A stretch of DNA of 64,000 nt from Candidatus Omnitrophota bacterium (GTDB taxonomy: Bacteria > Omnitrophota > Gorgyraeia > B26-G9). The position numbers and the translations under genes were made by a program. The notes under the pieces are model-generated. The model searched no databases and was not told the DNA's origin. It worked only from the letters and a program-made list of their open reading frames with translations. Position 1 is the stretch's first letter. Every line of letters begins with the position of its first letter. Shown here one piece after another: positions 4,840 to 64,000 of the stretch. Location of the stretch: positions 29,786 through 93,785 of the forward strand of contig JAZDHZ010000007.1 of the NCBI GenBank assembly GCA_043805415.1, given 5' to 3'.

Positions 4840-4872
4840 AGGATTTCCTTTGTTTAATATATTTAACCGCGG

Positions 4873-28727: not shown

Positions 28728-30996
28728 TATCTTTTCCCTTACGAATAGCCGCGGGCATTGTCCCGGCAACCCCCCGGGGCTTTTTATCTCTTGGCTTTAT
28801 TTTTATAAATCTTCTTAGCGAGAGTTTCAAGACAAGAGCAATCGCCTCGCGAAATATCTCAAGAGAAATTTTCGATCTTCCTCTTTGCCGTTCACAAAAA
28901 ATTATCGGGATTTCCTTTATACTCGCCGCGATGTTTCTTATCGCACATAGCGATTCAATCTGAAACGCGTATCCTTTAGATCCGATATGCTCCCAGTCAA
29001 TTTTTCGCAGTAAGGACCGTCTATAGCATTTATATCCTGAGGTCACGTCGCTAAAACTTGTCCCCAACAAAAGGTTTACTCCCCATTTTGTTGTCTTGGA
29101 AATAAGATTTCTCCAAAGCCTTCGGTTCTTAATACTCACCCTGCGTAAAAATCTTGAGCCTAAAACCAGATCATAAAAACAGGCATAATAAAGAAATATC
29201 GGCAAATATTCAGGATCATGTGAAAAATCAGCATCCATTTCAAAAATATAATCAGCATCAATATTACTCAATATATACTTAAATCCATTAATATATGCTG
29301 TTCCCAATCCCTGCTTTTCGGCTCTATGTATAACTTTTATTCTTTCATCGGCTAAAGCCATCTCTGTTGCTAATTTCCCCGTACCATCAGGAGAATTATC
29401 ATCAATAATTAGAATAAACGCATTACTCAAAACATTATGTATCTTATTACAAATAAGCCGGATATTGTCTTTTTCATTATAGGTAGGCATCACTATTGCT
29501 ACTTTTTTTTCTTTGGCACTTTTGAGAAAATATTTACTTTGCGACAGCATTCCCGCCGCTTCAGCAGTGTCGGTGAAAATCAAAGCATAAAACTTAACTT
29601 TCTGGATAAAAAAGTTAATGCCTGCCCTTAAATAACGCCGCAACTCAGTGAAAGACTTTAACCGAAACAATAACTTTGCTATAGTCTTAAAACTAAAATA
29701 GAATTTGAAATAAAATTCCTGAGTTAAAGAAAGAATCTCCTGTTCGGTCAAACTACTCCAGGGAGTTGGTAGCCGCTGTTTTAGTTCATTGCCTAAAACA
29801 TGCTCTTGCCACAGATCAATCCCAATTGTCTTGTTTAATCTAAGATGCAATTCGGTTCCGGGTTTCGCGATAACCTGACAAACCTGAATAAAATCAAGAT
29901 CTAATATTTTCGCGAACTTTATCGTCTCTCTAACCGAATCAGGGGTATCCCCTTCGTTCCCGACCATAAAAAAGCCCATTGTTCTAATTCCATATTTTTT
30001 CGTAAGGAAAATTGCCTTTTTGACATCGCTGATAGAAATTCGCTTGTTTATGTTATTTAAAACGCTCTGGTTTATCGATTCAATCCCGTAGTAGATCTGG
30101 CGGCATCCGGCATTTCTTGCTGCCTCCAGAATTTCCGCGTCAACAAGATCTACTCGGCTGCGGCATGACCACTCAAGATCCAGATTCAGTTCTTGCAGTT
30201 TTCTCATTATTTCCAGACTTCTTGTTTTATCCATAAAAAATATCGCGTCAAAAAAATCAATTTCCCGAATATTGTATTCTCGATAACAAAACTCTATCTC
30301 ATTAACTACACTCTGAGCTGCGCGAATACGATAAACACTTGGAATCGCGCAAAAGACACAAGTAAATGGACACCCCGTACTTGTAAGCATTATTGTGAAA
30401 TTTTTTCTCTGTGAGATAAAAGAATAATACTTCTCATTAGCCAAAAGATGACGCGCTGGATACGGATAATCATTAAAATCGAAAATTTTCGCATCCGGCT
30501 TATTCACAATTACCTTATTATCTTTCTGCTTGTAAGCAATGCCGGCAATACCGGAAAGATCTTTATTTACTGAAAGAGCTTCCAGCAATTTTGGTAAAGA
30601 TTCTATCGCCTCACCGATAACCCCATAATCAATTTGAGCATGCGACATAGTTTCTTCCGGATAGAGTGTCAGGTTAGGCCCGCCGGCAAACACGGGTTTT
30701 TTGAGTTTGCTTTTCAAAAATCCGATCCACTCAAGCGCATCATGAAAATGATAAGTTTCCGCTCTAAAACCCAGGATATCCGGATTAAATTCTGTTAATA
30801 TCTCAAGTGCCTGCTCTTTCCCAACTGCAAGCGCACGCGCATCTAAAATTTTTACAATATGCCCATGCTTTTCAAGAATAGCGGCAACATAAGCCAATAT
30901 TATCGGCGGAGCAAAACAGAATTCTTCATCAACTACCTGAAGATTTTCTGAAAAAATTTTATGATTATATGGCGGATAAATCAGCGCAACACGCAT
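28717..30996 (-). CDS. fusion: cobalamin-binding radical SAM (N-terminal) + Dpm1/GtrB-like polyprenol-phosphate glycosyltransferase GT2 (C-terminal)
   Basis: The N-terminal half has a B12 domain and CPFTCVFCAIPS. The C-terminal half (VAIVMPTYNEKDNI...IIDDNSPDGT...EMDADFSHDP) is the classic Dpm1/ArnC signature (DAD.SH). Confidence 0.8.
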   Translation of the reverse strand: MRVALIYPPYNHKIFSENLQVVDEEFCFAPPIILAYVAAILEKHGHIVKILDARALAVGKEQALEILTEFNPDILGFRAETYHFHDALEWIGFLKSKLKKPVFAGGPNLTLYPEETMSHAQIDYGVIGEAIESLPKLLEALSVNKDLSGIAGIAYKQKDNKVIVNKPDAKIFDFNDYPYPARHLLANEKYYSFISQRKNFTIMLTSTGCPFTCVFCAIPSVYRIRAAQSVVNEIEFCYREYNIREIDFFDAIFFMDKTRSLEIMRKLQELNLDLEWSCRSRVDLVDAEILEAARNAGCRQIYYGIESINQSVLNNINKRISISDVKKAIFLTKKYGIRTMGFFMVGNEGDTPDSVRETIKFAKILDLDFIQVCQVIAKPGTELHLRLNKTIGIDLWQEHVLGNELKQRLPTPWSSLTEQEILSLTQEFYFKFYFSFKTIAKLLFRLKSFTELRRYLRAGINFFIQKVKFYALIFTDTAEAAGMLSQSKYFLKSAKEKKVAIVMPTYNEKDNIRLICNKIHNVLSNAFILIIDDNSPDGTGKLATEMALADERIKVIHRAEKQGLGTAYINGFKYILSNIDADYIFEMDADFSHDPEYLPIFLYYACFYDLVLGSRFLRRVSIKNRRLWRNLISKTTKWGVNLLLGTSFSDVTSGYKCYRRSLLRKIDWEHIGSKGYAFQIESLCAIRNIAASIKEIPIIFCERQRGRSKISLEIFREAIALVLKLSLRRFIKIKPRDKKPRGVAGTMPAAIRKGKDNEN

Positions 30997-31007
30997 TTTT
31001 AACTCTT

Positions 31008-32702
31008 TTACCTACTCTCTTTGTTTAAGTTTTCAAAATCAGCAACTATTTTTTTAGCATCTATGACTATGTACTTTTTATCTTTAAAAACTATTTTTGA
31101 ATCCGGAAACTCAAGCAGAGCAAAGCGTTGTTTTTTGTTATTATTAATAATTTTTCCAATAAACTCATTATAAGGCGCGAAATAAAAACTGTCTGACTCT
31201 AGGTATTCAGCAGTAAAATGCTCACGATCAACCACAATATAATCTAGTTTATAAGTCTTTGAAAGCTTATAAATCTCTTGTTTTGACGCAGCATAGTATG
31301 CGGTAAAAAAATCATATGTGCGCTTACTTATTTGCGCATAATATTTTTGCTGATACGGAATATCTGCTTCCTGCATTATAAGTCCTTTGCGCAAGGCAAA
31401 AACCGTAATATCATCCATAACCTCTGGGTGCGCCGCGATAAAAGTATCTTTGGGCGTCTTGCCCAAAAATTCATAAAGCTTAATACCTTTGTCCGCTTTA
31501 TTGCTGAAAGAATAAGCATTTTGCAAATAAGGCAGAAAAGCAAATAAAACAAAAAGGCTTAAAGAAAAATGTATTATTGCCCTTTTTCCTGGGTTTTTCG
31601 TTAAATTACTGATCAGCCTTTGGATATTTAGACTAACAAAAATAATCAGCACAAACAAGAACGTATACCGCATATATCGCTCCGGCTCAAACAATTTCAG
31701 CATAAATATACGCGCGAGACAAAATAAAAATAAACCGCATAACAGCAATATCCATAACTCAGAACGGATCTTAAACGCCTTTTTCCCCATTAGAATCACC
31801 AGCAAACACGCGGCAAAAAATAATCCTGTCTTTGCTCTATCCAGACCCAGCCCGCTTCTATAATTTGTAATGCTTTGAAAAAAACTATCATAAAAGACAG
31901 GCAGCCTTCCCTTACTGCTGAACTCAGCCATTTGTTTCATCTCGCTAAGATTAAATACCGGTCCAAGTTCATCCGGAGGATTAAAATACTTTGGAGCTAT
32001 TAAACAAACAGCCACCAGGATAACTCCTGAAAAAACGATCCATATTTTTCTGTTTTTAATAAAACTGAGTGATTTTTTCGAAAACCTAGTCGCTGAAAGC
32101 GGATAGGTTAAAGCCGAAATAATAAACAGCGGCGGATATATGAACACTTGCGCTATCATTACTATTCCAGTTTTAAGATAATCCTTTTTTAAGAAATAAA
32201 AAATAAACATTAGCAATAAAACCGGATGGAATGCTCCCGCTCCGCCTTCTCCAAACCAGACATCTGAGAAAGCGAATGAACGCTCTGTATACCACGCGCT
32301 AAGAGTAACCAAAAAAGATACCCACAGCCCTGTTGTATTATTTTTAAGATAACAACCAATATGATAAGCAAATAGAGCAGAGATAGCTCCCAGAAAAAAA
32401 GGCAGAATTTTAACTACCGCAAGCGGGTTAAAAAATCGCCCGGATACATAATAAAAAGCCTTAAGGCCAATAGGTATTTTCCAATTTTCATAAACTAAAT
32501 GCAGATCACCTCTAAAAAGCTCACTATCTGCCAAATGCGCCATCCAGATAATGCTTTCTCTTGTATCTTCATGAACAGCGTATTTATTAAACAATAAATA
32601 AGACTGCGCATTAAAACATATCAATACCGCAAATACAACTACCGCAATTCGCATGATACATTTCTTATGGCTTTTTATTACTCCGACACCGGCATCTTGC
32701 AT
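31008..32702 (-). CDS. polytopic membrane protein with C-terminal soluble domain, function unknown
   Basis: A 564-aa ORF with multiple TM helices. The likely true start is the internal MRIAVVVFAVLICF (~32654). Confidence 0.5.
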   Translation of the reverse strand: MQDAGVGVIKSHKKCIMRIAVVVFAVLICFNAQSYLLFNKYAVHEDTRESIIWMAHLADSELFRGDLHLVYENWKIPIGLKAFYYVSGRFFNPLAVVKILPFFLGAISALFAYHIGCYLKNNTTGLWVSFLVTLSAWYTERSFAFSDVWFGEGGAGAFHPVLLLMFIFYFLKKDYLKTGIVMIAQVFIYPPLFIISALTYPLSATRFSKKSLSFIKNRKIWIVFSGVILVAVCLIAPKYFNPPDELGPVFNLSEMKQMAEFSSKGRLPVFYDSFFQSITNYRSGLGLDRAKTGLFFAACLLVILMGKKAFKIRSELWILLLCGLFLFCLARIFMLKLFEPERYMRYTFLFVLIIFVSLNIQRLISNLTKNPGKRAIIHFSLSLFVLFAFLPYLQNAYSFSNKADKGIKLYEFLGKTPKDTFIAAHPEVMDDITVFALRKGLIMQEADIPYQQKYYAQISKRTYDFFTAYYAASKQEIYKLSKTYKLDYIVVDREHFTAEYLESDSFYFAPYNEFIGKIINNNKKQRFALLEFPDSKIVFKDKKYIVIDAKKIVADFENLNKESR

Positions 32703-32864: not shown

Positions 32865-33887
32865 ATGAATAGTTTTTCACTCTTATTATACAAATACAAA
32901 TCGCTTTTTCAAGCACTATTTTGCAAGAACAGGTGTTATAATCTGGTATTTTCGCTGCTTTCCTGTTTGCGGAAAGATCCCAAAACAAAGCATCTCCCTT
33001 TTATTTTCCAGATAGAACCGACAAATCAATGTAATTTATGCTGTGTTCTTTGTCCTACCGGAGAAAAAACCTTAAAACGCCCTAAAACTAATTTATCCTT
33101 AGATATCTACAAACAAGCTGTCGATCAGCTGGAGAATCACGTAATCTATTTATCTTTATATAATATGGGCGAACCGCTTTTAAATAAAGACATTTTTCCA
33201 ATGATCCGCTATGCGCGCGACAAAAATATATTCGTCAGACTCAACAGCAATGGAACGCTTATTAATAAATCAGTTGCCGAACAAATCATTGACAGTGATT
33301 TAAATGAGATCCTTATCTCTCTAGATTCCGCAACCGCAGAAAAATATTTAACATACAAAAAAAGTGATGGTTTTGCTAAAGTGCTGCATAATCTCAAGCT
33401 GCTTATTGAAAAACGCGCTAACAAAAAACACCCTTTTATCGCTATTCAACTCCTCCTGCAAAAAAATTCAGAATATGATATCCTTAAATTCAAGCAGATC
33501 GCCAAGAGCTTAAAAGTAGATAAAGTGCTGTTAAAAAAAATAAGGGTAAACTCCCCTGGTTCTGCTATTAAAGCGGATTTTTTACCTCAAAACAAAAAGC
33601 TGATAAGAAATTATTACAAATCCAAGCAAAACAAAAAATCATGTCTGCGGCCATGGCAATCAGCGGTAATACTTAGTAACGGCGATGTCGTTGCCTGCTG
33701 TTTCGACATGGAGGCTAAGCATGTTTTTGGTAACATATCCCAGAACAGTTTTCAAACAATATGGAGCAATAAAAAATACATTGAATTCAGAGAGAAAATT
33801 AAAACCGATCTCAATCAACTTTCACTGTGCAAAGCATGCAGTCTTGAAGATATTTCCTTTTATTTAGGCCTTTTACTAAACAAGTAA
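32865..33887 (+). CDS. radical SAM/SPASM-domain protein (only plus-strand gene inside the cluster)
   Basis: CNLCCVLCPTG is present. The SPASM-like C-terminus reads CLRPWQSAVILSNGDVVACCFDM...GNISQNSFQTIW...CKACS. Confidence 0.8.
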   Translation: MNSFSLLLYKYKSLFQALFCKNRCYNLVFSLLSCLRKDPKTKHLPFIFQIEPTNQCNLCCVLCPTGEKTLKRPKTNLSLDIYKQAVDQLENHVIYLSLYNMGEPLLNKDIFPMIRYARDKNIFVRLNSNGTLINKSVAEQIIDSDLNEILISLDSATAEKYLTYKKSDGFAKVLHNLKLLIEKRANKKHPFIAIQLLLQKNSEYDILKFKQIAKSLKVDKVLLKKIRVNSPGSAIKADFLPQNKKLIRNYYKSKQNKKSCLRPWQSAVILSNGDVVACCFDMEAKHVFGNISQNSFQTIWSNKKYIEFREKIKTDLNQLSLCKACSLEDISFYLGLLLNK

Positions 33888-49555: not shown

Positions 49556-50410
49556 TTATTTTTCCGGATTAGCTACTTGAATATTAACATCATCCACTAA
49601 TACCATTGGTAAAGGCATTCCCCGCGCCTGGTTTAAGGTAATTTCCAGCATTATTGCTCTTCCGTCATTAGGCACAGTTCCCTTTAATTCAATATATTCC
49701 CATTGGCTGCAAGCCGAGCCGGAAACACTGGCCAGATTATCCCATTGGCCATTAGGCTTAAGCACATTAACTGTAAATTTTATAATATCTCCTTTATACC
49801 ATAGACTTGCCTTTACATCCGCGTTGGGTAAAACCCCTAACCAGCATTCTGTCTGTCTATAACTATAAGCGTTATTAATCAGGCTTTTAGCCGTTTTTTT
49901 TGAATAATGATAACGGCTAGCCGGAACAAGACATTGAATTTTCAGACAGCTGGGCGCGGAATGAAACTCCTTACTATCAATACTGGCAATACTTTTTGAA
50001 TTAGGAAATAATTTCCCGCCATCAGAAGTTACCCAATGCTCCAAGCCCTGGTTAAAATCATTGTTCTCGAGTTTATGGTCAGGACTAAAATAATTTTTCT
50101 CAATATGAGTTTTAATATATCTCTCCGACTCAAAAAACTGTTTATAAAAAAAGCCTTTTATCGGCTCATAAAATATCCAGAATGAAAATATGGCCGTCAT
50201 TGCCAGGATTAAAATTATCTGAATCGGACCAAGATTAATCGCGTCTTCATCAACATTTGACTGCTCAGGATTTTTCTCCTCCTCAAAAAACCATCGAATA
50301 ATTTTCAACAGTTTATTTTCTTTCTTTGTTTTATGATCCTTGGGATCTTTATTCTCCTTACTCTCTTTATCTGCCGCATTCTCTTTATTGCCTTTATTTT
50401 CCTGATTCAT
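49556..50410 (-). CDS. membrane-anchored hypothetical protein (K/E-rich cytoplasmic tail, single TM, extracytoplasmic beta-rich domain)
   Basis: The N-terminus is low-complexity (NKENAADKESKENKDPKDHKTKKENK). A TM segment (ILILAMTAIFSFWIF) follows. The C-terminal domain has Trp/Cys in a CBM-like pattern. Confidence 0.45.
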   Translation of the reverse strand: MNQENKGNKENAADKESKENKDPKDHKTKKENKLLKIIRWFFEEEKNPEQSNVDEDAINLGPIQIILILAMTAIFSFWIFYEPIKGFFYKQFFESERYIKTHIEKNYFSPDHKLENNDFNQGLEHWVTSDGGKLFPNSKSIASIDSKEFHSAPSCLKIQCLVPASRYHYSKKTAKSLINNAYSYRQTECWLGVLPNADVKASLWYKGDIIKFTVNVLKPNGQWDNLASVSGSACSQWEYIELKGTVPNDGRAIMLEITLNQARGMPLPMVLVDDVNIQVANPEK

Positions 50411-54215: not shown

Positions 54216-55072
54216 AAAAATTCCTTAATGTCTTTATCACTATACGCTTTTAAGTATTGCGTTGTGAGTCGTGCGTATTGCGCAAAAAGAACTAACAAAT
54301 AAACAACTAATATGCTTTTTCGCTTTTTCTAACCGCTATTCGCTGTACTCAATACTATTTTCTTTGTGACTTTGTGTCCTTGTAACCATCGTATCGAAGG
54401 CGGTCCGGAATCAATCATTTTGGCTCATTCTCGCATTACATCCTGTAATGCTCCGAGGATGAATCTCTGATTTTGTCAGTCCTATCAAAATCAGGCTTCA
54501 AACCCGCCTAAATAATTATTCCTGCCCTCCAAAGTGTACAGTTATTAATTACGAATTTTTAGTTTTTACCATTAGCCATCGACCATCATCCATTAGCCCT
54601 ACGCTTTTACTTTGTGACCTGGTGACTTTACAAACTTTATAAACTGTTTTGTCTTGTGTCCTTGCGTAGAGCAACTTTTTCTAAAGATGATCATCATCTT
54701 AAAAACAAATTAATAAAGAACTAAACGCTATTCGCAGATAGCTAATGACTAATGGTCACTAGTCTATTCGCCAGGCGAAAATTCTCTTTTAGCGGCGCTT
54801 TAAATGAGAGCCTGACTTACTGAGTGTTAGCGAAGTCAAGTCAGCCTGCTCGAATTTAGTCCGAAATAGCTGCGACCTAGCAGATATTTTCGGAATCATT
54901 AGCGAGAACGCGCGGCTGAGCCTGTACGATGCAGGCTCAGGCTTAGCTAAAAGATGTGTTTTTGCCTGTCAAACAACTCTTGCGTGTCATTAATTTTTAA
55001 CACGTTAACCTATTACCCCTCAACCTGCTTTTCTGCTTTGGCTATAAGTCATGCGCTATGCGCTAAACGCTA
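54216..55072. other. 857-bp ORF-free, locally GC-richer inter-operon region with multiple stable hairpins and short motif repeats (possible ncRNA or regulatory region)
   Basis: No ORF of 60 aa or more lies on either strand. There are three clear hairpins: gcattacatcctgtaatgc (54433-54451), ctgattttgtcagtcctatcaaaatcag (54467-54494) and gagcctgtacgatgcaggctc (54918-54938). Recurring motifs include ccattag/ctaatgg and ttgtgtccttg. Confidence 0.4.
54253..54356. repeat. IR-flanked conserved intergenic element, copy B (upstream of the GT4 gene 53061..54215), with a ~28-nt insertion relative to copy A
   Basis: agtattgcgttgtgagtcgtgcgtattgcgcaaaaaga...aataaacaac...cgctgtactcaatact. The termini agtattg/caatact are inverted. 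The core shared with copy A covers about 60 nt. Confidence 0.5.
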
Positions 55073-56752
55073 TTAGTTTCCTGGGAAAACAATCGATTTC
55101 CGGATTTTCTTTAAAATTAATAAATAAAACTCAATAATAATACTTGCGCCAAATAAAGCCAAAAGCAGGATAAACTTAAATATTTTATGTTCGCGCTTAA
55201 ATTGTCCCGGATTAAGAACAGTTAAGTCCTTGTCCTTGTCCTTGTTCTTTTTCTGATTCAAAATTTCTGTTTCTTCAATTATTAAGCTATCCTTTGCTTT
55301 TGGATTAAAGTTTTCATCCTGGTAATTTACAATCAGGTTTTTAATCTTTAGCTCTTTAAGTAGATCACAGATCCGCTTAACCCGCTGATTCCGCTCGGCC
55401 TGGGATAAATTATTTTCATCTGTCCATTTGCCTGGATCAAGCGGGTCAAGAAATTTAATCCCAAAACGCCGCGGATAAATCCCCACGTCAGAACCCGGCA
55501 TCAGCACAAAAGAAGAAACATTGGTCACCTGAGATATATATTTACAGTTGCGCTTAATAAAATCAATTGTCTGCTGAAAATCCTCTTCAGTCTCCCCGGG
55601 AAAACCGACAATAATATTCAGGCTTCCCTGGATGCCGGCTTTAAAGCTTTTTTCCAGCACTGCCTGGGCATCAGCAGCTGTATAATGTTTGTTCATTTGC
55701 TTTAAAATCCTGTCTGAGCCGCTTTCCAGTCCATAACACAAAGAATTACATCCGGCCTGTTTCAGATCATCGAGCAGTTCCTGAGTCATGTTTTTTCTGA
55801 TTGCCGCGTAGCTGATCCAGGTTAAATTAAGCTTTTCTTCCCGGATTTGTTTACAGAGCTTATCCAGAGCATGCGGATTGCCGTTACAAAGCAAATCATT
55901 AAACTCAATATGAGTTATATTGTATTTCTGTTTAAGATATTTCAGCTCTTGAATTATAAGCTCCGGGCTTTTCATCCGGAAACTTCCGCAAATATACCAG
56001 TCAATACAATAACCGCATTGATTGATACAGCCGCGGCTAAGCAGCATGGGCAGCGGATGATATTCGCTGTTTTTATTATAGCGGTTTAAATCAAATTCCT
56101 GGAAATCCGGATAAGGCAGGCTGTTTAAATCTTTTATCGGCTGCCAGGGCAGATAGGCTATATCTGCCGAATCTTGGGCATAAAGCAGTCCCGGGATTTT
56201 TGAACATAAATAATCCGCGGACGGATTATTTGAAAATTCCCGGATGAATTTTTCCAGGGCCAGCTCGCCCTCGCCGATTATAAAAAAATCAATGTTTTTG
56301 GTTGCAATCGCCTTTCTGTCCCAGCTGTGATAAATCCCCGGTCCTCCGAGAATAATAACTTTGTCGGGATATTTAAGCTTTATTTTATCCGCGGCAAATC
56401 CGGCAAAAACCGCGCTGATCAGATTATTGGCGGAAAAGCCGATGATTTTATACTGTTCCAAACTATCAACAAACCGCTCAATATGGTTTTCAAAAGCCTG
56501 AAAAATATTTTCGGCGATCTTTACCGGCTTGATCCGGTTGATTTCAGCCAAATGCCAAAACAGCTGTTGTTGGGAGTCTGCCTGTTCGTATAAATCCAGA
56601 TTTAAATCAAAAATATCTGCCGCTAGGCCTTTGGCCCTTAAGTACGCGGATAAACAAGCAATGCCCAAAGGCGGCATTACCACTCCCCAGGGCGGACAAT
56701 TAACTAAAATTAATTTATTCATTTGCTGCCTTTTAGGTTTAGTTTTAAACAA
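55073..56752 (-). CDS. cobalamin-binding-domain radical SAM protein (class B) with C-terminal TM helix
   Basis: B12 N-terminal domain and CINQCGYCIDW (CX3CX2C) are present. The C-terminal hydrophobic segment is FKFILLLALFGASIIIEFYLLIL. Confidence 0.85.
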   Translation of the reverse strand: MFKTKPKRQQMNKLILVNCPPWGVVMPPLGIACLSAYLRAKGLAADIFDLNLDLYEQADSQQQLFWHLAEINRIKPVKIAENIFQAFENHIERFVDSLEQYKIIGFSANNLISAVFAGFAADKIKLKYPDKVIILGGPGIYHSWDRKAIATKNIDFFIIGEGELALEKFIREFSNNPSADYLCSKIPGLLYAQDSADIAYLPWQPIKDLNSLPYPDFQEFDLNRYNKNSEYHPLPMLLSRGCINQCGYCIDWYICGSFRMKSPELIIQELKYLKQKYNITHIEFNDLLCNGNPHALDKLCKQIREEKLNLTWISYAAIRKNMTQELLDDLKQAGCNSLCYGLESGSDRILKQMNKHYTAADAQAVLEKSFKAGIQGSLNIIVGFPGETEEDFQQTIDFIKRNCKYISQVTNVSSFVLMPGSDVGIYPRRFGIKFLDPLDPGKWTDENNLSQAERNQRVKRICDLLKELKIKNLIVNYQDENFNPKAKDSLIIEETEILNQKKNKDKDKDLTVLNPGQFKREHKIFKFILLLALFGASIIIEFYLLILKKIRKSIVFPGN

Positions 56753-59700
56753 AATTCCTGCGCGTCGCCGGGCAGAAAAATCCTCGCTTTATTTGTTTCG
56801 ATTTTCTGCGCTGAAATGATCCGGGCATTGATCAGCTTATCGGCATTCTGGACCTGCGGCCTTAAGCCTGATCCACTATCCGCGGAAAAATCAAAAATCA
56901 GTTCAGGAAATTCACTATTCTTTGTTTTTCCTCCCAGGACTTTTATTTGTCTGGCGTTTAAATTTTTAATCTCAGCTTGCTGCCAATCTTTTAAATTAAA
57001 AAACTTGCCTGTTTCATTGGCAATCTGCCATTTTTTATAAACCGGGCAAAGCATGATGCTTGATTTAGTCTGTTCGATTTCGATTTTCGCGTCAACTGCC
57101 ATCCGGATATTCCATTCCAGCAGATAATCCTGATCCAGTTTTATCCGCCAAATCTGGGAAAGCGGAATATTATGCCAGGTGCTTTTCAGCTCAAGCTCAT
57201 GCTGATTATGCTTAAGCACTTCCCATTTTGCTTTGGAAGAGTCATACCATAAGCCAAACACGCGTACCGAAGTATTTAAGCCGATACTCTGAGTGATTTC
57301 CTGATTATCCCAAAAGAGTTTTACTCCTTCGCCATGATACACTGCCTGCAATCTGCCTTGTTTGATACTCTTTTTACTGTCTGATTTTCTTTTATCGATT
57401 CTCGCTTTTACGGCCTGGGAAAATGTTTTGCCTTTAAGATAGTTTTTCAGCTTTAGCCAGAATAAAGCCAGTTTCAATAACTTATATTCTAAGCCGGTCA
57501 AAGACTGGATCTTTTTATGCATATGAATATTCCGGGCAAGGTCGTCACAGCCTTTAAAACAGCCGACTTTTACATTCGAGTCATTGCCGATAAATGAAAA
57601 AAATACATCCTGCTTGGGCAAAGACATTGCCCGTTTTCGGAATTCCTGCTGTTTGCGGCTATTCCAGATCTGAACAAAATCATGAGCATAAATATTTCCC
57701 ACGGGGATGCGATGGGCTTTTAAGCAAAAATTCACATTGCCGTCAGCCCGGATTCTGGCAAACAGCCAACCCATATAACAAGGGATTTGATTTAAAATAT
57801 CATTATCATATTGAGCGATTTTCGCCTCATAATTCTCCACCCGGCGCATAAACTGCTCAAACTGTAGGATTTTGATTTTATTTTTTAAATCCCCTGTTTC
57901 TAAACGCTGTTTGATTTTATAACAATCATTGATTACGCTTTTTTGCTGCTCATCATTGAGCGTCAGAGCATCCGTAGCATCGGGAATAGTATCAATAACC
58001 GTAAATTCCAAAGAATCACAGCCGGTTTCCAGGGCGAAATCAAGCATTTGATTTATTTCCTGATAATTCTGATTGGAAATCACATTATAAATATTTACCC
58101 ACGGCTTTTGCTGTTTAAGCGAATTAAGCAGTTTAAGCGTACCTTTAAGCTGATAAAACATTGCCTCGGATTTATTGGGATGGGTCAGATGATAGGTTTT
58201 TGCTGTTCCGGCCCAGATACTGACCACCAGATTATCCACGCCAATATCAACCAATTGCTTTACCATATCCTCGCTGACTAAAGTAAAATTTGTATTAATA
58301 TAACAGCGCAAACCCAGCGCCTTAGCATGTTCCAGAATTTTCATAATCTGCGGATGCATAAACGGCTCGCCGCCTCCGGCAAAATAGATTTCCCGGGTGC
58401 CCAGACGCTTAAGCTGATCAATGGTTTTTTTAACAACTTCCATAGGTAAAGTCTGTTGTTTAACCTGCTCAGTGATCTTTTTATCTTTTAATAAAGGCGA
58501 ATTGCACCAGCAGCCGATGCAGTCATTATTACAATCATTGGTAAGGTCTATTTGCGCGCAAAACGGCCCCTTATAAGCCATATTACCGTCGATAACTCCG
58601 ATAATATCCAGATAATAATCTTTCAGTTTTTTCAAATTAAGATTTTTGATGATTTTAGCGCAAACCGCGAGCAGCCCTTTATCGCTTAGCTGCTCTTTAA
58701 TAAATTTTAAAGGCGCTTTTGTTTTATATTCCTGAATCGCCTGAGACTGTTTATTTTGCCTTAAAGTAATCTCCAAATCAAAATAATCATAAACTCCGGG
58801 CAAAAACCTGTCTATTTTTAATCTGCGCATCTGGACAATCCGTCCCTTGATCTTTTTATCCGTATTCTGGATCTGGGGATAAGTATTATCTTTGTACAGT
58901 CTAAGAGTTTTTAGCTCAATCTCCGGCAGAGCATTTTTGTATTTATTCTCACTGCCTGCCAAAAGCCGGGAACTATTGGGATTATATAATTCAATTTCTT
59001 CCCATTCCGTTATTTTTGGGAAAAAGCCTGTACCCAGGTTATCCTTCCACATCGTATATTTACTGTCCAGCAGCAGCCCGGCTTTGTATTCCATGATCTC
59101 CATATCCTGATCAATCCGCATCTGGCTGGACCATTTGATAATATCATTATCTTCAATAATGATCAGCCATTGCTGGCGTACCGGATGCTGATCCCATTTC
59201 AGCCAGACCTTAATCATATTCTCAGCGGTTTTTTCCAGTTTCCAATGCGCCAGAGAAGAATCAATCCAGCTTTGGCCGCAATGCATGGAAGTATTCAGGC
59301 CCACGTCTTTGCTGATTTCCTGATTTTTCCAAAACAGCCTTACCTTGCCTTCGCTAAAAGCAATTTTTGTATTTCCATTGGTAATTGTCTCTTCAATAAG
59401 CCAAAGTTTTCTGCTAAAATACTGCCTGACACGCAAAGGCAAAAACATCAGCCGCCTTAAAATAAATAAGCATATTTTAAAAAGCGCGGCCAGCAGCCCT
59501 TTGGTTTTATAATAAACTATTAATTTTTGCTTTAGGCTCCGCGGCTGAACCGGCAGCAGCTTTTTAATTTTCAGCTGACAGTGTTTTTCCCATTGCTTAT
59601 ACGCGTTATTTTTTGCCTGTTTAAGCTGTTTCGAGGACAAGTCCTGAGTGCGGATAACGCAGCTGTGATTTCCGTCAAAATTATCCCAGTTCTTATCCAG

Positions 59701-60918
59701 AATATAACCCTGCTTATCCATTTGCTCATAAAACCGGGTTCCGGGAAAAGGCGTGGCCAGAGAAAACTGCACGGAAGTCGGATTTAATTTTTTGGCATAT
59801 TCAATAGTATCGCTGACTGTCTGGCTGGTTTCACCCGGCAGCCCAAAGGTAAAAGTCAAATGCGTCCTGATCCCTAAATATTTCGTGTACTTAACCATTT
59901 CCTCGACTTTTTTCAAATCACTGCCTTTATTAATATTATCCAGCAATTGCTGGGAGGAAGATTCCACGCCGTATTTGACGGAAAACAAGCCGGCTTTACG
60001 CATTCTTTCCAGCAGCGGCTCATCCATAAGCTCAGCTCTGGCCATAATCGCCCAAGGCACCTGGAGATTTCTTTTTTCCAGCTCATCGCAAAACGCGAAG
60101 ATCCGCTGTTTGCCGATATTCCAGGTATCATCATCAAAATAAATTGATTTAAATCCCAGCTGTTTAACCAAATATTCCATTTCATCAACAACATCAACCA
60201 CATCTCTGACGCGGTACGAACCGCCTTTATACATTACCTGCGGCCATAAACAAAAACTGCATTTAAACGGACAGCCGCGGCTGGCCCACATTGAGGCGCA
60301 AGGCACAGGAATATCCCCGGGAGCATCATTGTAGGACTTGAGCAGCAGTTTTTTTCGCCGCGGCCAGGGCAAAGAATCCAGATCCTTAATCAAAGGCCGA
60401 GGCGGATTTTTCATGGCTTGATTATTTTGTTTATAAATCAACCCTGAGACATCAGCTAAGCTGCTTTTATCCCTAAGTTTTTGGCAGAGCTCAAGTAAAG
60501 TAGCCTCATACTCGCCGTACATGAGATAATCAATAAAAGCGGTTTTTTCTAAAAATTCCGGATTTTCCAGCTGCGCTTCCGGGCCGCACAAGGCTATGGG
60601 CAGATGACCTTTATGCCGGATAAGCATTTTCAGGTCATGCGCCAAAGTAACAGTTGATGTTTCCGCTACCATTAACTGCGGCTTAAGCGCGATTATTTTC
60701 TGGAAAAACTCATTTTTCGAGAGTTTCTCGGCAATCGCGTCAATAATTTCCACTTCAAAACCGTTTTTTTCCAGCAAAGCAGCGGCATAAGCCAGATAAA
60801 ACGGAAACGGCAGATAATTATTTTCCGTATGATCTTTTATATGCGGCCAGCGCGAACCGGCTCTGACTCCCCAGCGATTGCCTTTTTTCCAGGGTAAATT
60901 AACTAAAACAATCCTCAT
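56719..60918 (-). CDS. giant 1399-aa multidomain protein: B12-binding rSAM (aa 1-~470) - hydrophobic helix - novel Trp-rich domain (aa ~515-700) - rSAM/SPASM (aa ~770-1130; CNNDCIGCWC) - novel Trp-rich domain copy 2 (aa ~1165-1399)
   Basis: The first rSAM motif is CPFKCSFCLW. The second rSAM with SPASM reads CYMGWLFARIRADGNVNFC...CFKGCDD. Two internal repeats carry LFW-NQEI-GLNTS-W.DSS conserved positions. Confidence 0.85.
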   Translation of the reverse strand: MRIVLVNLPWKKGNRWGVRAGSRWPHIKDHTENNYLPFPFYLAYAAALLEKNGFEVEIIDAIAEKLSKNEFFQKIIALKPQLMVAETSTVTLAHDLKMLIRHKGHLPIALCGPEAQLENPEFLEKTAFIDYLMYGEYEATLLELCQKLRDKSSLADVSGLIYKQNNQAMKNPPRPLIKDLDSLPWPRRKKLLLKSYNDAPGDIPVPCASMWASRGCPFKCSFCLWPQVMYKGGSYRVRDVVDVVDEMEYLVKQLGFKSIYFDDDTWNIGKQRIFAFCDELEKRNLQVPWAIMARAELMDEPLLERMRKAGLFSVKYGVESSSQQLLDNINKGSDLKKVEEMVKYTKYLGIRTHLTFTFGLPGETSQTVSDTIEYAKKLNPTSVQFSLATPFPGTRFYEQMDKQGYILDKNWDNFDGNHSCVIRTQDLSSKQLKQAKNNAYKQWEKHCQLKIKKLLPVQPRSLKQKLIVYYKTKGLLAALFKICLFILRRLMFLPLRVRQYFSRKLWLIEETITNGNTKIAFSEGKVRLFWKNQEISKDVGLNTSMHCGQSWIDSSLAHWKLEKTAENMIKVWLKWDQHPVRQQWLIIIEDNDIIKWSSQMRIDQDMEIMEYKAGLLLDSKYTMWKDNLGTGFFPKITEWEEIELYNPNSSRLLAGSENKYKNALPEIELKTLRLYKDNTYPQIQNTDKKIKGRIVQMRRLKIDRFLPGVYDYFDLEITLRQNKQSQAIQEYKTKAPLKFIKEQLSDKGLLAVCAKIIKNLNLKKLKDYYLDIIGVIDGNMAYKGPFCAQIDLTNDCNNDCIGCWCNSPLLKDKKITEQVKQQTLPMEVVKKTIDQLKRLGTREIYFAGGGEPFMHPQIMKILEHAKALGLRCYINTNFTLVSEDMVKQLVDIGVDNLVVSIWAGTAKTYHLTHPNKSEAMFYQLKGTLKLLNSLKQQKPWVNIYNVISNQNYQEINQMLDFALETGCDSLEFTVIDTIPDATDALTLNDEQQKSVINDCYKIKQRLETGDLKNKIKILQFEQFMRRVENYEAKIAQYDNDILNQIPCYMGWLFARIRADGNVNFCLKAHRIPVGNIYAHDFVQIWNSRKQQEFRKRAMSLPKQDVFFSFIGNDSNVKVGCFKGCDDLARNIHMHKKIQSLTGLEYKLLKLALFWLKLKNYLKGKTFSQAVKARIDKRKSDSKKSIKQGRLQAVYHGEGVKLFWDNQEITQSIGLNTSVRVFGLWYDSSKAKWEVLKHNQHELELKSTWHNIPLSQIWRIKLDQDYLLEWNIRMAVDAKIEIEQTKSSIMLCPVYKKWQIANETGKFFNLKDWQQAEIKNLNARQIKVLGGKTKNSEFPELIFDFSADSGSGLRPQVQNADKLINARIISAQKIETNKARIFLPGDAQEFCLKLNLKGSK

Positions 60919-61031
60919 AAATAAAACCTCTCTTTTTCAAATTCTCTGCTGCTAAATAATAGTTTAAAGCTTTAATCTCTTTAGCTTTATTTTTTCTATC
61001 CCATTTTTATTATCGCTATTCTTCTTATCAA

Positions 61032-63980
61032 TCATAAAAACTCTTCCAGATGATACAGGGAAAACTGATCCCAGACATCCCTAAGCACCTGATGCGTATC
61101 GCAATGCTGACAATCATCACCAAATAAAGGAGTGCCGTTTAGGAATTTTTCCTGTTTATGAGCACTAAGATATTTAGCTTGATACCGGAAGCGTTCATAT
61201 GCTTCGGAGTTCCAGATTTCTTTAAATGATTTATCTTTTAAATACCCTACGGTTCTTAAATGACAGCAAAAGCTCACGTCTCCGGCAGCGGGAATAAGGC
61301 TGAAATTCCAGCCCAAAGCGCAGCCTTTTTCCAGAAAAACATCTTTGGACCATGACCCTGTATCCGGCTCGAGATTTTTTAACTGAAATTGGGTAGTATC
61401 AAGCAGCTCGATTTCTTTACCTTTAAGCATTTGTTTAATTTCAGGTAAAGCCTGCTTAATCGCCTCAATATCCTCTGGTTTTAGTTTTAAAGCCTGAATA
61501 TTCTGATCAAGCCTGACCAGATAAAACCGGATCACATTTGCGCCAACGGCAATATCATTTTCCGCCATCTCCACCAGCTCATGGGCGTTCATTGTATGAA
61601 TAACATGAGTCATAATCAAACGCGGCTTTTTTGCTTTGCTCTGTTTTTTATAATCAGATAAATATTTAAGATTTTCCAGGATCGTATCAAACGCTTTCTC
61701 ATTCTGCTTGGTATTTATTTGGGCAAAGGTTTTTGCCAAACCAGCTGGCAGACTGCAGAAAATTTCGCTTACCCCATAATCAACCGCCTGTTTAGCCACT
61801 GTTTTATTCAAAAGAATGCCATTAGTAAAAAACGATACTTCAATTCCCTTTTCCCGGCCGTATTTAACCATATCAAAAAATCGCTCATGCAATAGCGGCT
61901 CGCCGTCTCCTTGAAAAATCATCAGGTCAGTGTAAAGTTCACTTAGATCATCAGCGATTTTTTTAAAGCCTTCAAAGCTGAGTTTCCGGTCAAGAAATTC
62001 CTGGGGATGTTTTATGCTCGGCGTATGCACCCAGCAATGCACGCAATTAGCATTACAGCGGTGATACGGATCAATAACCACGATCTGCGGTCCAATAAAA
62101 GCGTGTTCGCAGATCACGCCCAATAAACGCAATAACTGGCGTTCATTATCTGTTTCCACCTGAGTATAAACCGCAGTAATCAGATCAAACAGCTTATCAT
62201 CAGCCAGAACAAATTCAATATTACCGATACGGCTGGCGATTTTTTTCAAGGCACCAAGATACTCAATAAAACTACGCCGCAATTTTTTTAAGGGGAAGAT
62301 ATTTAAAGTCAAAGACCTCAGGTCAATCGGTTCCCCGATTTCCTTAGCCGCAAATTGAAGAATTTCATTAAGTTTAAAGAAATTATATCTGGACACTCCG
62401 ATTGTTATCAGAGGAGTTCTTCCCTGTTTTTTCAGCAAACGCAGATTGTTTATTTTTGTCTCAAACTCTTTTACTCCGCTAATCCGGTCATGGAGAATCG
62501 GGTTGTCCGCGTATATATAGCTTGATTGCGGCTCAAAACGCAATGGCTGGGCATCCCGCCTATAATCATCGATACAGCTATTGTCATCACTGAGATATAT
62601 ACCGCCTTTAAATTCACGAAATTCTTTGGCCGCGTATTTACTGGTCTGGCTGGTTTCAATTACCTGGGCCTGCAAAGCCCGGCCGCGGATAATCCGATCC
62701 GAATTCTGAATCAAAGAGATGTATTCCGGGTCAATGCAAAACATCACTGCCGGCAAACCATTATCCGCGTAAGTACCGAAAGTTTCTCCGTCCCGGTTAG
62801 CGATAATATCATGCCAGGACCCGAACTGTTCAGGAAAAACACCTTGCTCAAAAGAATTAAACCAGCGCTGATACGCGCCGCTTAGGATAATCCCGGTTTT
62901 GCGCTGCTTAATCTCCACTGCCTGTTTAAACTCAATGCGCGCGTGCCATTCAATAGTATGATCGTCTTTTAGCGTAACCATCCATTTCTCAACCGCGGGA
63001 AAAGGGCTAAAATCAATTACTATCTCCATCTTCCTATCTGATATCTTGGTTACATCCCAATTAATTTTTCCGGAATCATACCAATAGCCGTCGGAATACA
63101 GCGCTGTATGCAAACCAATATCCGTAGTTATTTCCCTGCTTTTCCAAAAAATCCTTAATCTGCCTTTATCCGGCAATAGCTTAATATTTTTATTTTCCAA
63201 ACCGCTGCGCGTAATCATAGCCTGCATTTTCTGATTAAGCTGCTGTTCGATTAAATCAGGCTGGGGAATAAGCGTGATTTCCAGAGCAAAATTATTTTTT
63301 TCTTGCGAACCATTTACTTTCACTGCCTGGAGATAACGCGCCTGATTATTCCGGTCTGAATTCTGGACAAGCAGATAATCGCAGCTTTGCTCTTTAGCTC
63401 TGAGCATTATCCCGGGAATTTTCCCCTGGTTTTTCAAACCAACCGCGCCCTCAGGTTTATCTTTAATTACCCGCTGCCAATCAGCGAATTCTTGGCTGAA
63501 AATTCCGCTTTCATATCCGCCAAACCATTGTTCATATTCCGGGCTCAAGATTATTCCTGCTGCCTGATTTTCAATAAGCGTGTTTTTATCCAGAATATCC
63601 GTGGAAATTTTCCACTCAATCAGTTGCTGATTATTAAGCATTATCTGCCAGCACTGGCGGATGGCTAAAGGCCGCCAGTCAATTTCAATGTATAAAGACT
63701 GGGAATTGATCCGCTCAACCTGCCAAATACACTTACTGGAATCAAACCATTGTCCGGACACAAACAAAGCTGAATGCAGTCCAGCGCCTTTGCTCAACTG
63801 TTTATCCTGCCAAAACAACTGAATTGACTGGTCTTTAAGCTCAAGCTTTAGATCAGCTTCAATGATCTGTCTTGACCGCAGAGCCTGGCTGATGCTTTCC
63901 TGCTTTATTTTGCTGAACAAATCCCGATCCAAGCAAAACAGGATCTCTGATTTTAACAACCGGTATCTGGCCTTAGCCAT
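61032..63980 (-). CDS. 982-aa protein: two tandem copies of the novel Trp-rich domain (aa ~50-225 and ~272-445) fused to a C-terminal rSAM/SPASM domain
   Basis: The repeats begin QLFWQDKQLSKGAGLHSALF...WFDSSKCIW and RIFWKSREITTDIGLHTALY...WYDSGKINW. The rSAM motif is CNANCVHCW. The SPASM region (CALGWNFSLIPAAGDVSFCC) is paralogous to that of 56719..60918. Confidence 0.85.
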   Translation of the reverse strand: MAKARYRLLKSEILFCLDRDLFSKIKQESISQALRSRQIIEADLKLELKDQSIQLFWQDKQLSKGAGLHSALFVSGQWFDSSKCIWQVERINSQSLYIEIDWRPLAIRQCWQIMLNNQQLIEWKISTDILDKNTLIENQAAGIILSPEYEQWFGGYESGIFSQEFADWQRVIKDKPEGAVGLKNQGKIPGIMLRAKEQSCDYLLVQNSDRNNQARYLQAVKVNGSQEKNNFALEITLIPQPDLIEQQLNQKMQAMITRSGLENKNIKLLPDKGRLRIFWKSREITTDIGLHTALYSDGYWYDSGKINWDVTKISDRKMEIVIDFSPFPAVEKWMVTLKDDHTIEWHARIEFKQAVEIKQRKTGIILSGAYQRWFNSFEQGVFPEQFGSWHDIIANRDGETFGTYADNGLPAVMFCIDPEYISLIQNSDRIIRGRALQAQVIETSQTSKYAAKEFREFKGGIYLSDDNSCIDDYRRDAQPLRFEPQSSYIYADNPILHDRISGVKEFETKINNLRLLKKQGRTPLITIGVSRYNFFKLNEILQFAAKEIGEPIDLRSLTLNIFPLKKLRRSFIEYLGALKKIASRIGNIEFVLADDKLFDLITAVYTQVETDNERQLLRLLGVICEHAFIGPQIVVIDPYHRCNANCVHCWVHTPSIKHPQEFLDRKLSFEGFKKIADDLSELYTDLMIFQGDGEPLLHERFFDMVKYGREKGIEVSFFTNGILLNKTVAKQAVDYGVSEIFCSLPAGLAKTFAQINTKQNEKAFDTILENLKYLSDYKKQSKAKKPRLIMTHVIHTMNAHELVEMAENDIAVGANVIRFYLVRLDQNIQALKLKPEDIEAIKQALPEIKQMLKGKEIELLDTTQFQLKNLEPDTGSWSKDVFLEKGCALGWNFSLIPAAGDVSFCCHLRTVGYLKDKSFKEIWNSEAYERFRYQAKYLSAHKQEKFLNGTPLFGDDCQHCDTHQVLRDVWDQFSLYHLEEFL

Positions 63981-64000
63981 GGCCTGGTCATAATAATCTC

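Follow-up and report, generated by a model that had tools for sequence, protein, structure and literature searches.

A tryptophan-rich supersandwich domain on radical SAM enzymes and Wzt-type ATPases of Candidatus Omnitrophota is a candidate glycan-recognition module

Two adjacent genes of a Candidatus Omnitrophota bacterium encode very large radical SAM (rSAM) proteins (hereafter proteins A and B) in which the catalytic domains are accompanied by repeated copies of a Trp-rich segment. What is this segment, and what is its role on radical enzymes? The DNA analyzed (hereafter the window) is a stretch of 64,000 nucleotides of contig JAZDHZ010000007.1. A preliminary description, made from the letters of the window, had reported four copies of a domain of ~180 aa that was not recognized as any named one, and had suggested that it binds a substrate, either carbohydrate or lipid. 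The features on which the argument depends are as follows:

63897-64000, minus strand: C-terminal tail of a further domain copy, with inter-copy linker; the frame is open, DYYDQAMAKARYRLLKSEILF aligns with residues 201-221 of the three-copy ortholog in the syntenic locus L002, and the gene runs past the window end
63255-63896, minus strand: first domain copy of protein A; profile E 8.3e-64; counterpart of the middle one (copy 2) of the three in full-length orthologs, 71% identical to L002 copy A2
62574-63233, minus strand: second domain copy of protein A; orthologous to copy 3 of 3, and the copy used for the structure model
62090-62528, minus strand: conserved alpha/beta subdomain of protein A between the copies and the rSAM core (residues ~485-630); model pLDDT ~90, with alternating strands and helices
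61035-62069, minus strand: SPASM-type rSAM catalytic domain of protein A; CX3CX2C at residue 642
59590-60864, minus strand: N-terminal B12-binding rSAM domain of protein B, distantly HpnJ/BchE-like; PF02310 and PF04055; TIGR03471 HpnJ E 5.8e-80 at 269 bits, below the 577-bit cut-off
59428-59505, minus strand: hydrophobic helix before copy B1 (protein B residues 472-497); mean Kyte-Doolittle 2.06, internal Arg-Arg
58744-59418, minus strand: domain copy B1 of protein B; profile E 2.3e-65, 79% identity to L002 B1
57625-58551, minus strand: SPASM-type rSAM domain of protein B; PF04055 (residues 792-962) and PF13186 (residues 1047-1095)
57424-57501, minus strand: segment of amphipathic appearance before copy B2 (residues ~1140-1165); pattern KLLKLALFWLKLKNYL, judged by eye
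56722-57399, minus strand: C-terminal domain copy B2 of protein B; profile E 1.7e-67, 69% identity to L002 B2
55073-56752, minus strand: next gene of the operon, a B12-binding rSAM protein with a C-terminal membrane helix and without a domain copy; PF04055 and PF02310; 74% identical to the syntenic L002 gene

The four segments are homologous. Pairwise BLASTP aligns them at E 4.5e-22 to 3.6e-36 with 25-30% identity over 190-220 residues, and 24 alignment columns are invariant among all four. Each matches a 45-sequence family profile (E 1.7e-67 to 8.3e-64) with envelopes that agree with the positions first reported, and the conserved motifs listed at that time are all visible in the alignment; the length, given as ~180 aa, is measured at ~215-225 aa. 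Comparison of the six-frame ORFs of the window with the same profile gave no match beyond these four copies. Repeats at the DNA level are absent apart from remnants of 18-35 nt at the conserved motifs, and the duplication is therefore ancient. A recent duplication or an assembly artefact was set aside, given the lack of DNA repeats and the fact that every copy has its own orthologs.

Protein A had been described as a 982-aa protein with two copies at its N-terminus. The two tandem copies stand, but the length and the N-terminus do not, as the window edge cuts the gene. The reading frame is open up to base 63998. Residues 201-234 of the L002 ortholog (1,183 aa) find their match in the six codons 5' of the supposed start (DYYDQA) plus the initial 28 residues of the protein as described, and this ortholog is 77% identical to protein A across all 982 residues. 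Orthologs of protein A are ~1,185 aa long and carry three copies, so the two copies seen here are not at the true N-terminus. The alpha/beta subdomain that follows them has the conserved motifs IYIYGD..LHDRI.G and GVSR.NFFKL and gave no Pfam match. No record of the window's protein A was found in the assembly collection.

Protein B (1,399 aa) carries copies on either side of its SPASM-type domain, as described, and has a further catalytic part that had escaped mention, the N-terminal B12-binding rSAM domain. The SPASM domain is 29% identical to the catalytic domain of protein A (E 2.5e-39). A hydrophobic or amphipathic helix had been placed ahead of each protein B copy. Residues 472-497 are indeed hydrophobic, whereas at residues ~1140-1165 a Kyte-Doolittle scan never reached the threshold for a membrane span, and their amphipathic look comes from a reading of the sequence. 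Residues 472-497 probably act as a membrane-surface anchor; a true span was set aside because it would be expected to place the iron-sulfur rSAM domain outside the cytoplasm, which makes a surface helix the likelier of the two.

An exhaustive profile search recovered 593 representative clusters (50% identity) at E <= 1e-3, of which 221 remained at E <= 1e-30, with mostly 2-9 copies per relative protein and an overall range of 1 to 9. The named relatives are almost all Candidatus Omnitrophota, the organism labels coming from a search seeded with the catalytic motif of protein A. Public annotation of the relatives reads 'radical SAM protein' or 'hypothetical protein' only. A word-indexed protein search with the four-copy alignment had a sole match, a fragment of a protein B ortholog (P0001), as the family is too divergent for such an index. 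The excised copies matched nothing in Pfam-A or NCBIfam at E <= 10 beyond single-copy noise; weak matches of single copies to DUF7452, DUF3613, TMEM71, and lpxB (E 0.013-0.19) were dismissed as such, and the CBM families within Pfam did not match any of the four. Among PDB sequences the best match to the 45-sequence profile was a metallo-beta-lactamase at E 0.22, a chance match. The domain did not turn up in literature searches that combined Omnitrophota with radical SAM, or Wzt with either mutarotase or radical SAM. The original impression that it corresponds to no named domain is thus borne out.

One copy (62574-63233) was modeled with AlphaFold2. The model is confident (pLDDT 95.6, pTM 0.91) and adopts a galactose-mutarotase-like beta-supersandwich (Foldseek probability 1.00, query-normalised TM-score up to 0.69); superposed on known members of this fold, the predicted structure follows the same topology. 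The fold neighbors are overwhelmingly carbohydrate-associated, and the fold also occurs in proteins without known sugar binding, the YidC periplasmic domain, a PBCV-1 capsid protein, and the chloroplast NDH subunit PnsB2. Known galactose-mutarotase-like families (aldose 1-epimerases; accessory or central domains of GH2, GH31, GH36, GH38, GH97, and other hydrolases, phosphorylases, and lyases; OpgG/OpgD) are 5-14% identical to the domain and gave no profile match. The Omnitrophota domain also differs from them in that it occurs in a setting of biosynthesis and export, not of degradation, and its partners (ABC ATPase, rSAM, and GT-C) are new for the fold.

Across 617 distinct copies the conserved columns are mainly aromatic (five Trp, one Tyr, and two Phe), joined by Thr, Ser, Gln, Asn, Arg, two Gly, and one Pro. 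Asp, Glu, and His stay below 60% in every column of this set, the highest being E34 (58%), D179 (53%), and D53 (50%). Judged from residue conservation, such a make-up would suit a binding site better than a catalytic site. Across genomes, the copies at a given position group together as orthologs (42-79% identity), while paralogs of one genome share 10-32%, and a genome has ~10 distinct, separately conserved copies. In one protein (P0003) two adjacent copies are identical in sequence, which indicates that copy number changes readily.

If the domain binds something, what is it? The relatives outside the enzymes are informative here. In just over half of the best 150 of the 593 relatives, an ABC ATPase domain is followed from ~residue 231 by 2-5 copies. 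The nearest known protein to this ATPase is Aquifex aeolicus Wzt (E 1e-64, with a match that spans the nucleotide-binding domain only), and the next nearest are TarH/TagH and mycobacterial galactan Wzt. A gene for an ABC-2/Wzm permease (PF01061) lies immediately upstream, and in relatives the ATPase-plus-copies gene stands in the same operon as the orthologs of proteins A and B, upstream of them. Going by the gene order of L002, small rSAM genes, wzt, and wzm are predicted past base 64000 of the window. Proteins of both types, ATPase-plus-copies and rSAM-plus-copies, are encoded in 37 of 64 domain-bearing loci (adjacent genes in 25), a set gathered with protein A and its close homologs as query and so biased towards the protein A architecture. 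Three proteins (P0006 and ORFs in loci L014 and L076) are single polypeptides that contain ATPase, copies, and rSAM together.

The place after the ATPase domain is taken in canonical Wzt by the C-terminal carbohydrate-binding domain, Pfam Wzt_C (PF14524), with structures from E. coli O9a, Raoultella terrigena, and Aquifex aeolicus. Both domains are directly C-terminal to a Wzt-type nucleotide-binding domain whose gene lies beside Wzm, in the Omnitrophota case in relatives and not in the window itself. However, Wzt_C is a ~150-aa jelly-roll beta-sandwich that dimerizes by C-terminal strand exchange, a description that does not fit the Omnitrophota domain, and it gave no sequence match to the four copies (Pfam-A, E <= 10) or to the whole proteins (E <= 0.1). 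The Omnitrophota domain is moreover present as 2-5 diverged tandem copies instead of one, and has rSAM enzymes and GT-C glycosyltransferases as further fusion partners. The domain at this position of canonical Wzt binds the O-antigen cap and is needed for export (PMC9445017); by analogy, the Omnitrophota copies may share the role of recruiting finished lipid-linked polysaccharide to the exporter.

A third type of partner is found among relatives with a long N-terminal region, where all eight proteins tested are PMT_2 (GT-C) glycosyltransferases with 2-4 C-terminal copies. Basic residues precede their last membrane helix, and by the positive-inside rule these copies would lie outside the cytoplasm. 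The surroundings are rich in glycan genes: the window encodes GT2, GT4, and PMT_2 glycosyltransferases, a sugar aminotransferase, a carbamoyltransferase, and a Wzy_C/WaaL-like ligase, and the gene cluster, with its many glycosyltransferases, exceeds 50 kb.

The fold, the Wzt position, and the GT-C fusions are three independent lines of evidence, and on their strength we think it probable that this unnamed ~220-residue family is a glycan-recognition module common to the exporter and the tailoring enzymes of an ABC-transporter-dependent surface-glycan pathway in Candidatus Omnitrophota. Its most likely ligand is the cell-surface glycan built by these proteins, since a sugar-binding fold is attached to rSAM enzymes, an exporter ATPase, and membrane glycosyltransferases alike. 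The early suggestion of a substrate-binding, possibly carbohydrate-binding, module has therefore gained support. In the pathway that we propose, the cluster's many glycosyltransferases would build a lipid-linked polysaccharide on the cytoplasmic side of the membrane. Copies on proteins A and B would hold the rSAM catalytic domains on the polymer, so that its sugars could be modified by radical chemistry, and the 2-5 diverged copies on the Wzt ATPase, in place of the canonical carbohydrate-binding domain, would recruit the finished polymer to Wzm/Wzt. Those on GT-C glycosyltransferases may keep the glycan in place while more sugars are added, perhaps at the periplasmic face.

Could the copies bind proteins instead of sugar? 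As docking modules, pairs of copies would assemble Wzm/Wzt, the rSAM enzymes, and the glycosyltransferases into a membrane-associated complex without direct sugar binding. The co-encoding of domain-bearing proteins in one operon, and their occasional fusion, would fit such a complex, and the separate conservation of every copy position as an orthologous group is what specific partner pairs would lead one to expect; canonical Wzt carbohydrate-binding domains themselves dimerize (PMC9445017), and no sugar binding is known for the supersandwich domain of YidC. We nevertheless regard docking as unlikely, given a fold family that is overwhelmingly carbohydrate-associated, a domain that occupies the exact site of the Wzt carbohydrate-binding domain, and GT-C-fused copies whose predicted location outside the cytoplasm would keep them away from cytoplasmic partners. 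Docking and glycan binding are in any case not mutually exclusive. A specific pairing of exporter and enzyme copies was set aside, as no such pair within a genome is notably similar; with a maximum of 26% identity, nothing indicates a common epitope for exporter and enzymes.

It is very unlikely that each copy is an enzyme, mutarotase/epimerase-like or glycan-cleaving in the manner of aldose 1-epimerases or OpgD/OpgG, adding a further reaction to each fusion protein. Aldose 1-epimerases use acidic and His residues, and neither a family-wide acid/base or His pair nor the His/His/Asp/Glu catalytic set of these enzymes is seen in the conservation of the 617 copies. The aldose 1-epimerase profile (PF01263) did not match the copies at E <= 10 in Pfam or NCBIfam searches, and strongly diverged tandem arrays of 2-5 are typical of binding modules, not of catalysts. 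Little credit can be given, likewise, to inert spacers that set the distances between catalytic domains or from the membrane, as the coiled coil of the WbdD chain terminator serves as a molecular ruler. The variable copy number and the identical neighboring copies of P0003 would agree with this, but spacers would not need surface-type polar and aromatic residues kept family-wide, nor positions kept across genomes. Least probable of all, in our estimate, is binding of a polyprenyl-phosphate lipid carrier or of the membrane surface. All fusion partners do act on lipid-linked intermediates, and hydrophobic or apparently amphipathic helices precede the protein B copies; against this, the top fold matches include no lipid-binding relatives, polar Thr, Ser, Gln, Asn, and Arg are among the conserved residues, and recognition of one carrier lipid would not call for 10 different copies in a genome, each conserved on its own. 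The lipid half of the original suggestion has accordingly gained no support.

Glycan recognition, the reading we favor, has a bolder extension that is possible but doubtful. The copies might be the reading heads of a glycan quality control, in which each of the ~10 per genome recognizes a different rSAM-installed modification or polymer stage. This would arrange the tailoring enzymes in sequence on the polymer, which the exporter, through 3-5 different copies of its own, would release only after several modifications. If true, this would be a multi-epitope checkpoint, in contrast to the single terminal cap read by canonical Wzt, and these rSAM enzymes would be the first for which a dedicated binding module is shown to direct them to polysaccharide.

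For annotation, a family of 593 clusters could receive a name and a profile, and hundreds of large Omnitrophota entries that now have generic names would become readable as parts of glycan export. The cap-reading position of Wzt exporters, it appears, can hold a different fold in multiple diverged copies, which would widen the model of polysaccharide selection by ABC transporters. The same module on rSAM enzymes points to extensive radical chemistry on surface polysaccharide, for which no published precedent was found in the literature searched. The isolated domain could also be a handle for fishing out the glycan of an uncultured, host-dependent phylum.

Other rSAM systems offer partial parallels. 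RiPP recognition elements (the PqqD-like RRE) are fused to SPASM rSAM peptide maturases, but an RRE is a small winged helix, a fold unrelated to the all-beta supersandwich of the Omnitrophota domain. A RiPP-type pathway was set aside: protein A matched no PqqD or other RRE-type model in Pfam, and the neighboring genes are glycan-related. The SPASM enzymes of the window resemble SkfB and PqqE. The structure nearest to the catalytic domain of protein A is the sugar-modifying rSAM enzyme BlsE, with DesII ranking fourth. The substrates of BlsE and DesII are small sugars linked to a nucleoside or nucleotide, and the two proteins, with 327 and 462 residues, are too short to contain a module of this kind; their NCBIfam models score 34 and 31 bits, far under the cut-offs of 400 and 450. 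Domain-linked rSAM enzymes sit in clusters with 16 rSAM domains. One rSAM protein free of the domain, that of the gene at 55073-56752, has its hydrophobic segment at residues 521-551, with a mean hydropathy of 2.55.

A Trp-rich domain recurs four times on two radical-SAM (rSAM) proteins, A and B, whose genes are consecutive with that of protein C, all on the minus strand. The genes and the domain copies (the latter as profile envelopes) lie as follows in window coordinates:

61032-63980, minus: protein A, listed as 982 aa
63255-63896, minus: domain copy, protein A
62574-63233, minus: domain copy, protein A
56719-60918, minus: protein B, 1,399 aa
58744-59418, minus: domain copy B1, protein B
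56722-57399, minus: domain copy B2, protein B
55073-56752, minus: protein C, 559 aa

The preliminary description had taken these segments to be homologous repeats of about 180 residues. When the four were excised and compared by BLASTP, every pair aligned significantly over 190-220 residues (25-30% identity, E 4.5e-22 to 3.6e-36), and a 45-sequence family profile matches the copies at E 1.7e-67 to 8.3e-64, bearing out the homology. The four-way alignment contains 24 invariant columns and displays all of the motifs first listed, seen here as LFW..(Q/R)E(I/L)(S/T)...GL, W.DS, (I/L)EW, L...Y..W.....G.F and QN(S/A)D....R. The length requires revision to about 215-225 residues, since this is what the profile envelopes span. 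At the DNA level only remnants of 18-35 nt persist between copies, at the conserved motifs, so the duplications appear old. The same profile found no further matches in a six-frame translation of the 64 kb.

Protein A is truncated by the window edge, its frame being open up to base 63998. Six codons ahead of the listed ATG (DYYDQA) and the residues after it match the ortholog from L002, an Omnitrophota genome-bin locus, from residue 201 (L002 9989-13540; identity is 68% in the first 300 residues and 77% across the full 982). In L002 and a dozen other genomes, protein A orthologs are approximately 1,185-1,215 residues long and carry three copies; the window protein therefore comprises copies 2 and 3 and the last strand of copy 1, and its original description as a 982-aa protein with copies at the N-terminus reflects the window edge. 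The listed ATG (63980) is an internal methionine, and the ORF exits the window end (63897-64000). A model of residues 470-982 (pLDDT 86.7) places an alpha/beta subdomain at about 485-630, followed by the SPASM rSAM core. This subdomain (62090-62528; pLDDT about 90), situated between the copies and the rSAM core, is conserved, with invariant motifs IYIYGD..LHDRI.G and GVSR.NFFKL, and has no Pfam match.

Protein B is counted here as a three-enzyme-domain protein, in which Pfam-A and NCBIfam show rSAM, SPASM and B12-binding parts. Its features outside the copies are:

residues 19-443: B12-binding rSAM domain, distantly HpnJ/BchE-like, far under family cut-offs
residues 472-497: hydrophobic helix ahead of B1, mean hydropathy 2.06
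residues ~790-1098: SPASM rSAM domain, between B1 and B2
residues around 1140-1165: amphipathic-looking segment ahead of B2, read from the sequence by eye

Of the hydrophobic or amphipathic helices proposed ahead of each copy, the first is thus hydrophobic; the second is only amphipathic-looking and stays below threshold throughout the hydropathy scan.

The domain had been described as corresponding to no named family, and database searches agree. Pfam-A and NCBIfam recognize only the rSAM, SPASM and B12-binding parts of the whole proteins, excised copies give no credible match in either even at E <= 10, and the 45-sequence profile finds no match in the PDB by sequence (best, a metallo-beta-lactamase, E 0.22). 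Public names of domain proteins are “radical SAM protein”, “MoaA/NifB/PqqE/SkfB family radical SAM enzyme” or “hypothetical protein”. A word-indexed protein search recovered a single fragment; a profile search run exhaustively against 1.84 billion representatives returned 593 proteins at E <= 1e-3 (221 at E <= 1e-30), mostly with 2-9 copies each. Protein A and its homologs served as seeds for a genome scan, which yielded 80 loci: nearly all are labelled Candidatus Omnitrophota, and some bear a Planctomycetia or other label assigned by automated pipelines. The Omnitrophota label comes from these scan loci. Archaeal, Desulfobulbales and Aminicenantes loci in the scan matched in the rSAM part only, with no domain copy. 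Closest to the window is L002, in which five syntenic genes encode proteins 74-84% identical to those of the window.

An AlphaFold2 model of the second window copy, built from 45 aligned copies (pLDDT 95.6, pTM 0.91), is all-beta, with about 19 strands preceded by a short N-terminal helix. Its structural relatives include GH38 alpha-mannosidase 2wyh (17.6), GH174 fucanases, the aldose 1-epimerases 3nre and 3mwx (about 16), beta-galactosidases, phosphorylases, lyases and OpgG/OpgD; the YidC periplasmic domain is likewise listed. Foldseek gives an agreeing picture. Sequence identity to these relatives is 5-14%. The novelty of the domain thus lies in its sequence; its predicted fold is a well-known one, overwhelmingly tied to carbohydrates.

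The proteins that carry the domain point the same way. Just over half of the 150 best relatives share one layout, the most frequent: an ABC ATPase (PF00005; Walker A near residue 48) and then, from about residue 231, 2-5 copies. The protein A-like order, copies then SPASM rSAM, was counted in 12; one relative, P0004, is a protein B ortholog, and in some the copies lie downstream of B12-binding or other rSAM domains. Eight relatives with a long N-terminal region were tested, and each proved to be a PMT_2 (GT-C) membrane glycosyltransferase bearing 2-4 copies at its C-terminus. The ATPase belongs to the Wzt/TagH type: in the PDB it best matches Aquifex aeolicus Wzt (8dku, 7k2t, 6oih; E about 1e-64), then TarH/TagH and mycobacterial galactan Wzt; NCBIfam agrees, and the gene immediately upstream encodes an ABC-2 (Wzm-like) permease. 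The Wzt match is confined to the nucleotide-binding domain and ends where the canonical carbohydrate-binding domain starts. That domain is a jelly-roll dimer; it binds the O-antigen at its terminal cap, and capped polymers cannot be exported without it (PMC9445017). Unlike canonical Wzt, these proteins carry multi-copy arrays in place of the cap-binding domain, and the same domain is found on rSAM and GT-C enzymes: a new sequence family with a known fold in a new use.

Exporter and radical enzymes are also linked in the genome. Across the 64 fetched loci containing the domain, 41 encode an ATPase-plus-copies protein and 37 encode this together with an rSAM-plus-copies protein, the two genes being adjacent or overlapping in 25; in two more loci they are fused. 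Single-ORF fusions of a Wzt-type ATPase, 3-5 copies and one or two rSAM domains occur in L014 (3489-9083), L076 (8564-14308) and P0006, a single 1,856-residue chain with five copies and a SPASM rSAM domain, and argue that exporter and radical enzymes work together. In L002 the genes run wzm, wzt (five copies), four small SPASM/rSAM genes, the A, B and C orthologs, GT4 and GT2. The window shares this order from A onward, and its exporter genes are therefore expected just past base 64000.

From 10.6 kb onward the window consists essentially of a single cluster, over 50 kb long and on the minus strand, which holds 15 of the 16 window rSAM domains and 14 of the 15 rSAM ORFs, several of which carry B12-binding domains. 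Individual genes mentioned here are:

8952-10454, plus: SPASM rSAM gene with the sixteenth rSAM domain, just below the ligase gene and outside the cluster
10592-12226: Wzy_C/WaaL-like ligase, at the far end of the cluster
28717-30996: B12-rSAM and GT2 fusion
32865-33887, plus: SPASM rSAM, the sole plus-strand gene in the cluster

The cluster also encodes glycosyltransferases (GT2, GT4 and five PMT_2), methyltransferases, a DegT-type aminotransferase, an asparagine-synthase-like (AsnB-like) amidotransferase and a carbamoyltransferase; the cell-division and cell-wall genes mraW, ftsI, murE, murF and mraY lie below 8 kb. Judged by gene content, this is a glycan locus unusually rich in radical chemistry.

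What, then, might one domain contribute to such different proteins? Fold, Wzt position, fusion partners and gene neighbourhood all agree, and the domain is thus probably a glycan-recognition module common to the exporter and to enzymes that tailor or extend the same lipid-linked polysaccharide. The carbohydrate-binding role offered in the preliminary description, here a predicted one, gains support from the same evidence; lipid binding, its other suggestion, is the least probable of the readings considered. On proteins A and B the domain would tether radical chemistry to the polymer, conceptually like the recognition elements of peptide-modifying SPASM enzymes, with polymer in place of peptide. 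In the GT-C enzymes the copies come after the last membrane helix, which is preceded by basic residues, and the positive-inside rule would place them outside the cytoplasm; if so, the glycan is the sole thing common to both membrane sides.

A protein-docking scaffold is unlikely, and would be compatible with glycan recognition. A catalytic role is very improbable, conserved acid/base residues being lacking: the positions conserved in 617 distinct copies are T36, G40, W51, S54, W59, Q82, W84, W96, Y121, W124, G131, F133, W140, P161, N177, R185 and F208, and no acidic or His column reaches 60%. A role as a spacer is slightly less credible again.

Several smaller features of the window deserve mention. 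A 284-aa protein (49556-50410), flanked by PMT_2 and carbamoyltransferase genes, has a Lys/Glu-rich N-terminus, one hydrophobic segment and a C-terminus that reads like a beta-rich carbohydrate-binding-type domain, and matches nothing in Pfam or NCBIfam. Three cluster ORFs (632, 282 and 564 aa; 13596-16339 and 31008-32702) have zero Pfam matches. The 857 nt between the protein C and GT4 genes (54216-55072) contain no ORF of at least 100 aa and form the only sizeable gap seen within 50-64 kb of a tightly packed operon. In the cell-wall run, the first of two Mur-ligase ORFs (3357-4337, presumably murE) begins at a TTG and is 326 aa long; of the Mur-ligase domains it has the middle and C-terminal ones but lacks the N-terminal catalytic one. 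A wrongly set start, or a frameshift in the gap at 4337-4873, may be the cause.

Copies from six genomes (L002, L004, L005, L011, L017, L025) and the window were clustered. Each position (exporter copies 1-5, A1-A3 and B1-B2) forms a separate orthologous group whose members are 42-79% identical to the window copies, and copies inside one genome share only 10-32%. In this set the greatest identity between an exporter and an enzyme copy is 26%, and no such pair is notably close. Identity among exporter-borne copies is much lower (10-21%) than among enzyme-borne ones (25-32%); the two A copies of L017 share 41%. In P0003, a Wzt-type relative, the adjacent copies at residues 453-671 and 678-901 are identical in sequence; they arose by tandem duplication very recently or are an artefact of assembly, and suggest that copy number can change quickly.
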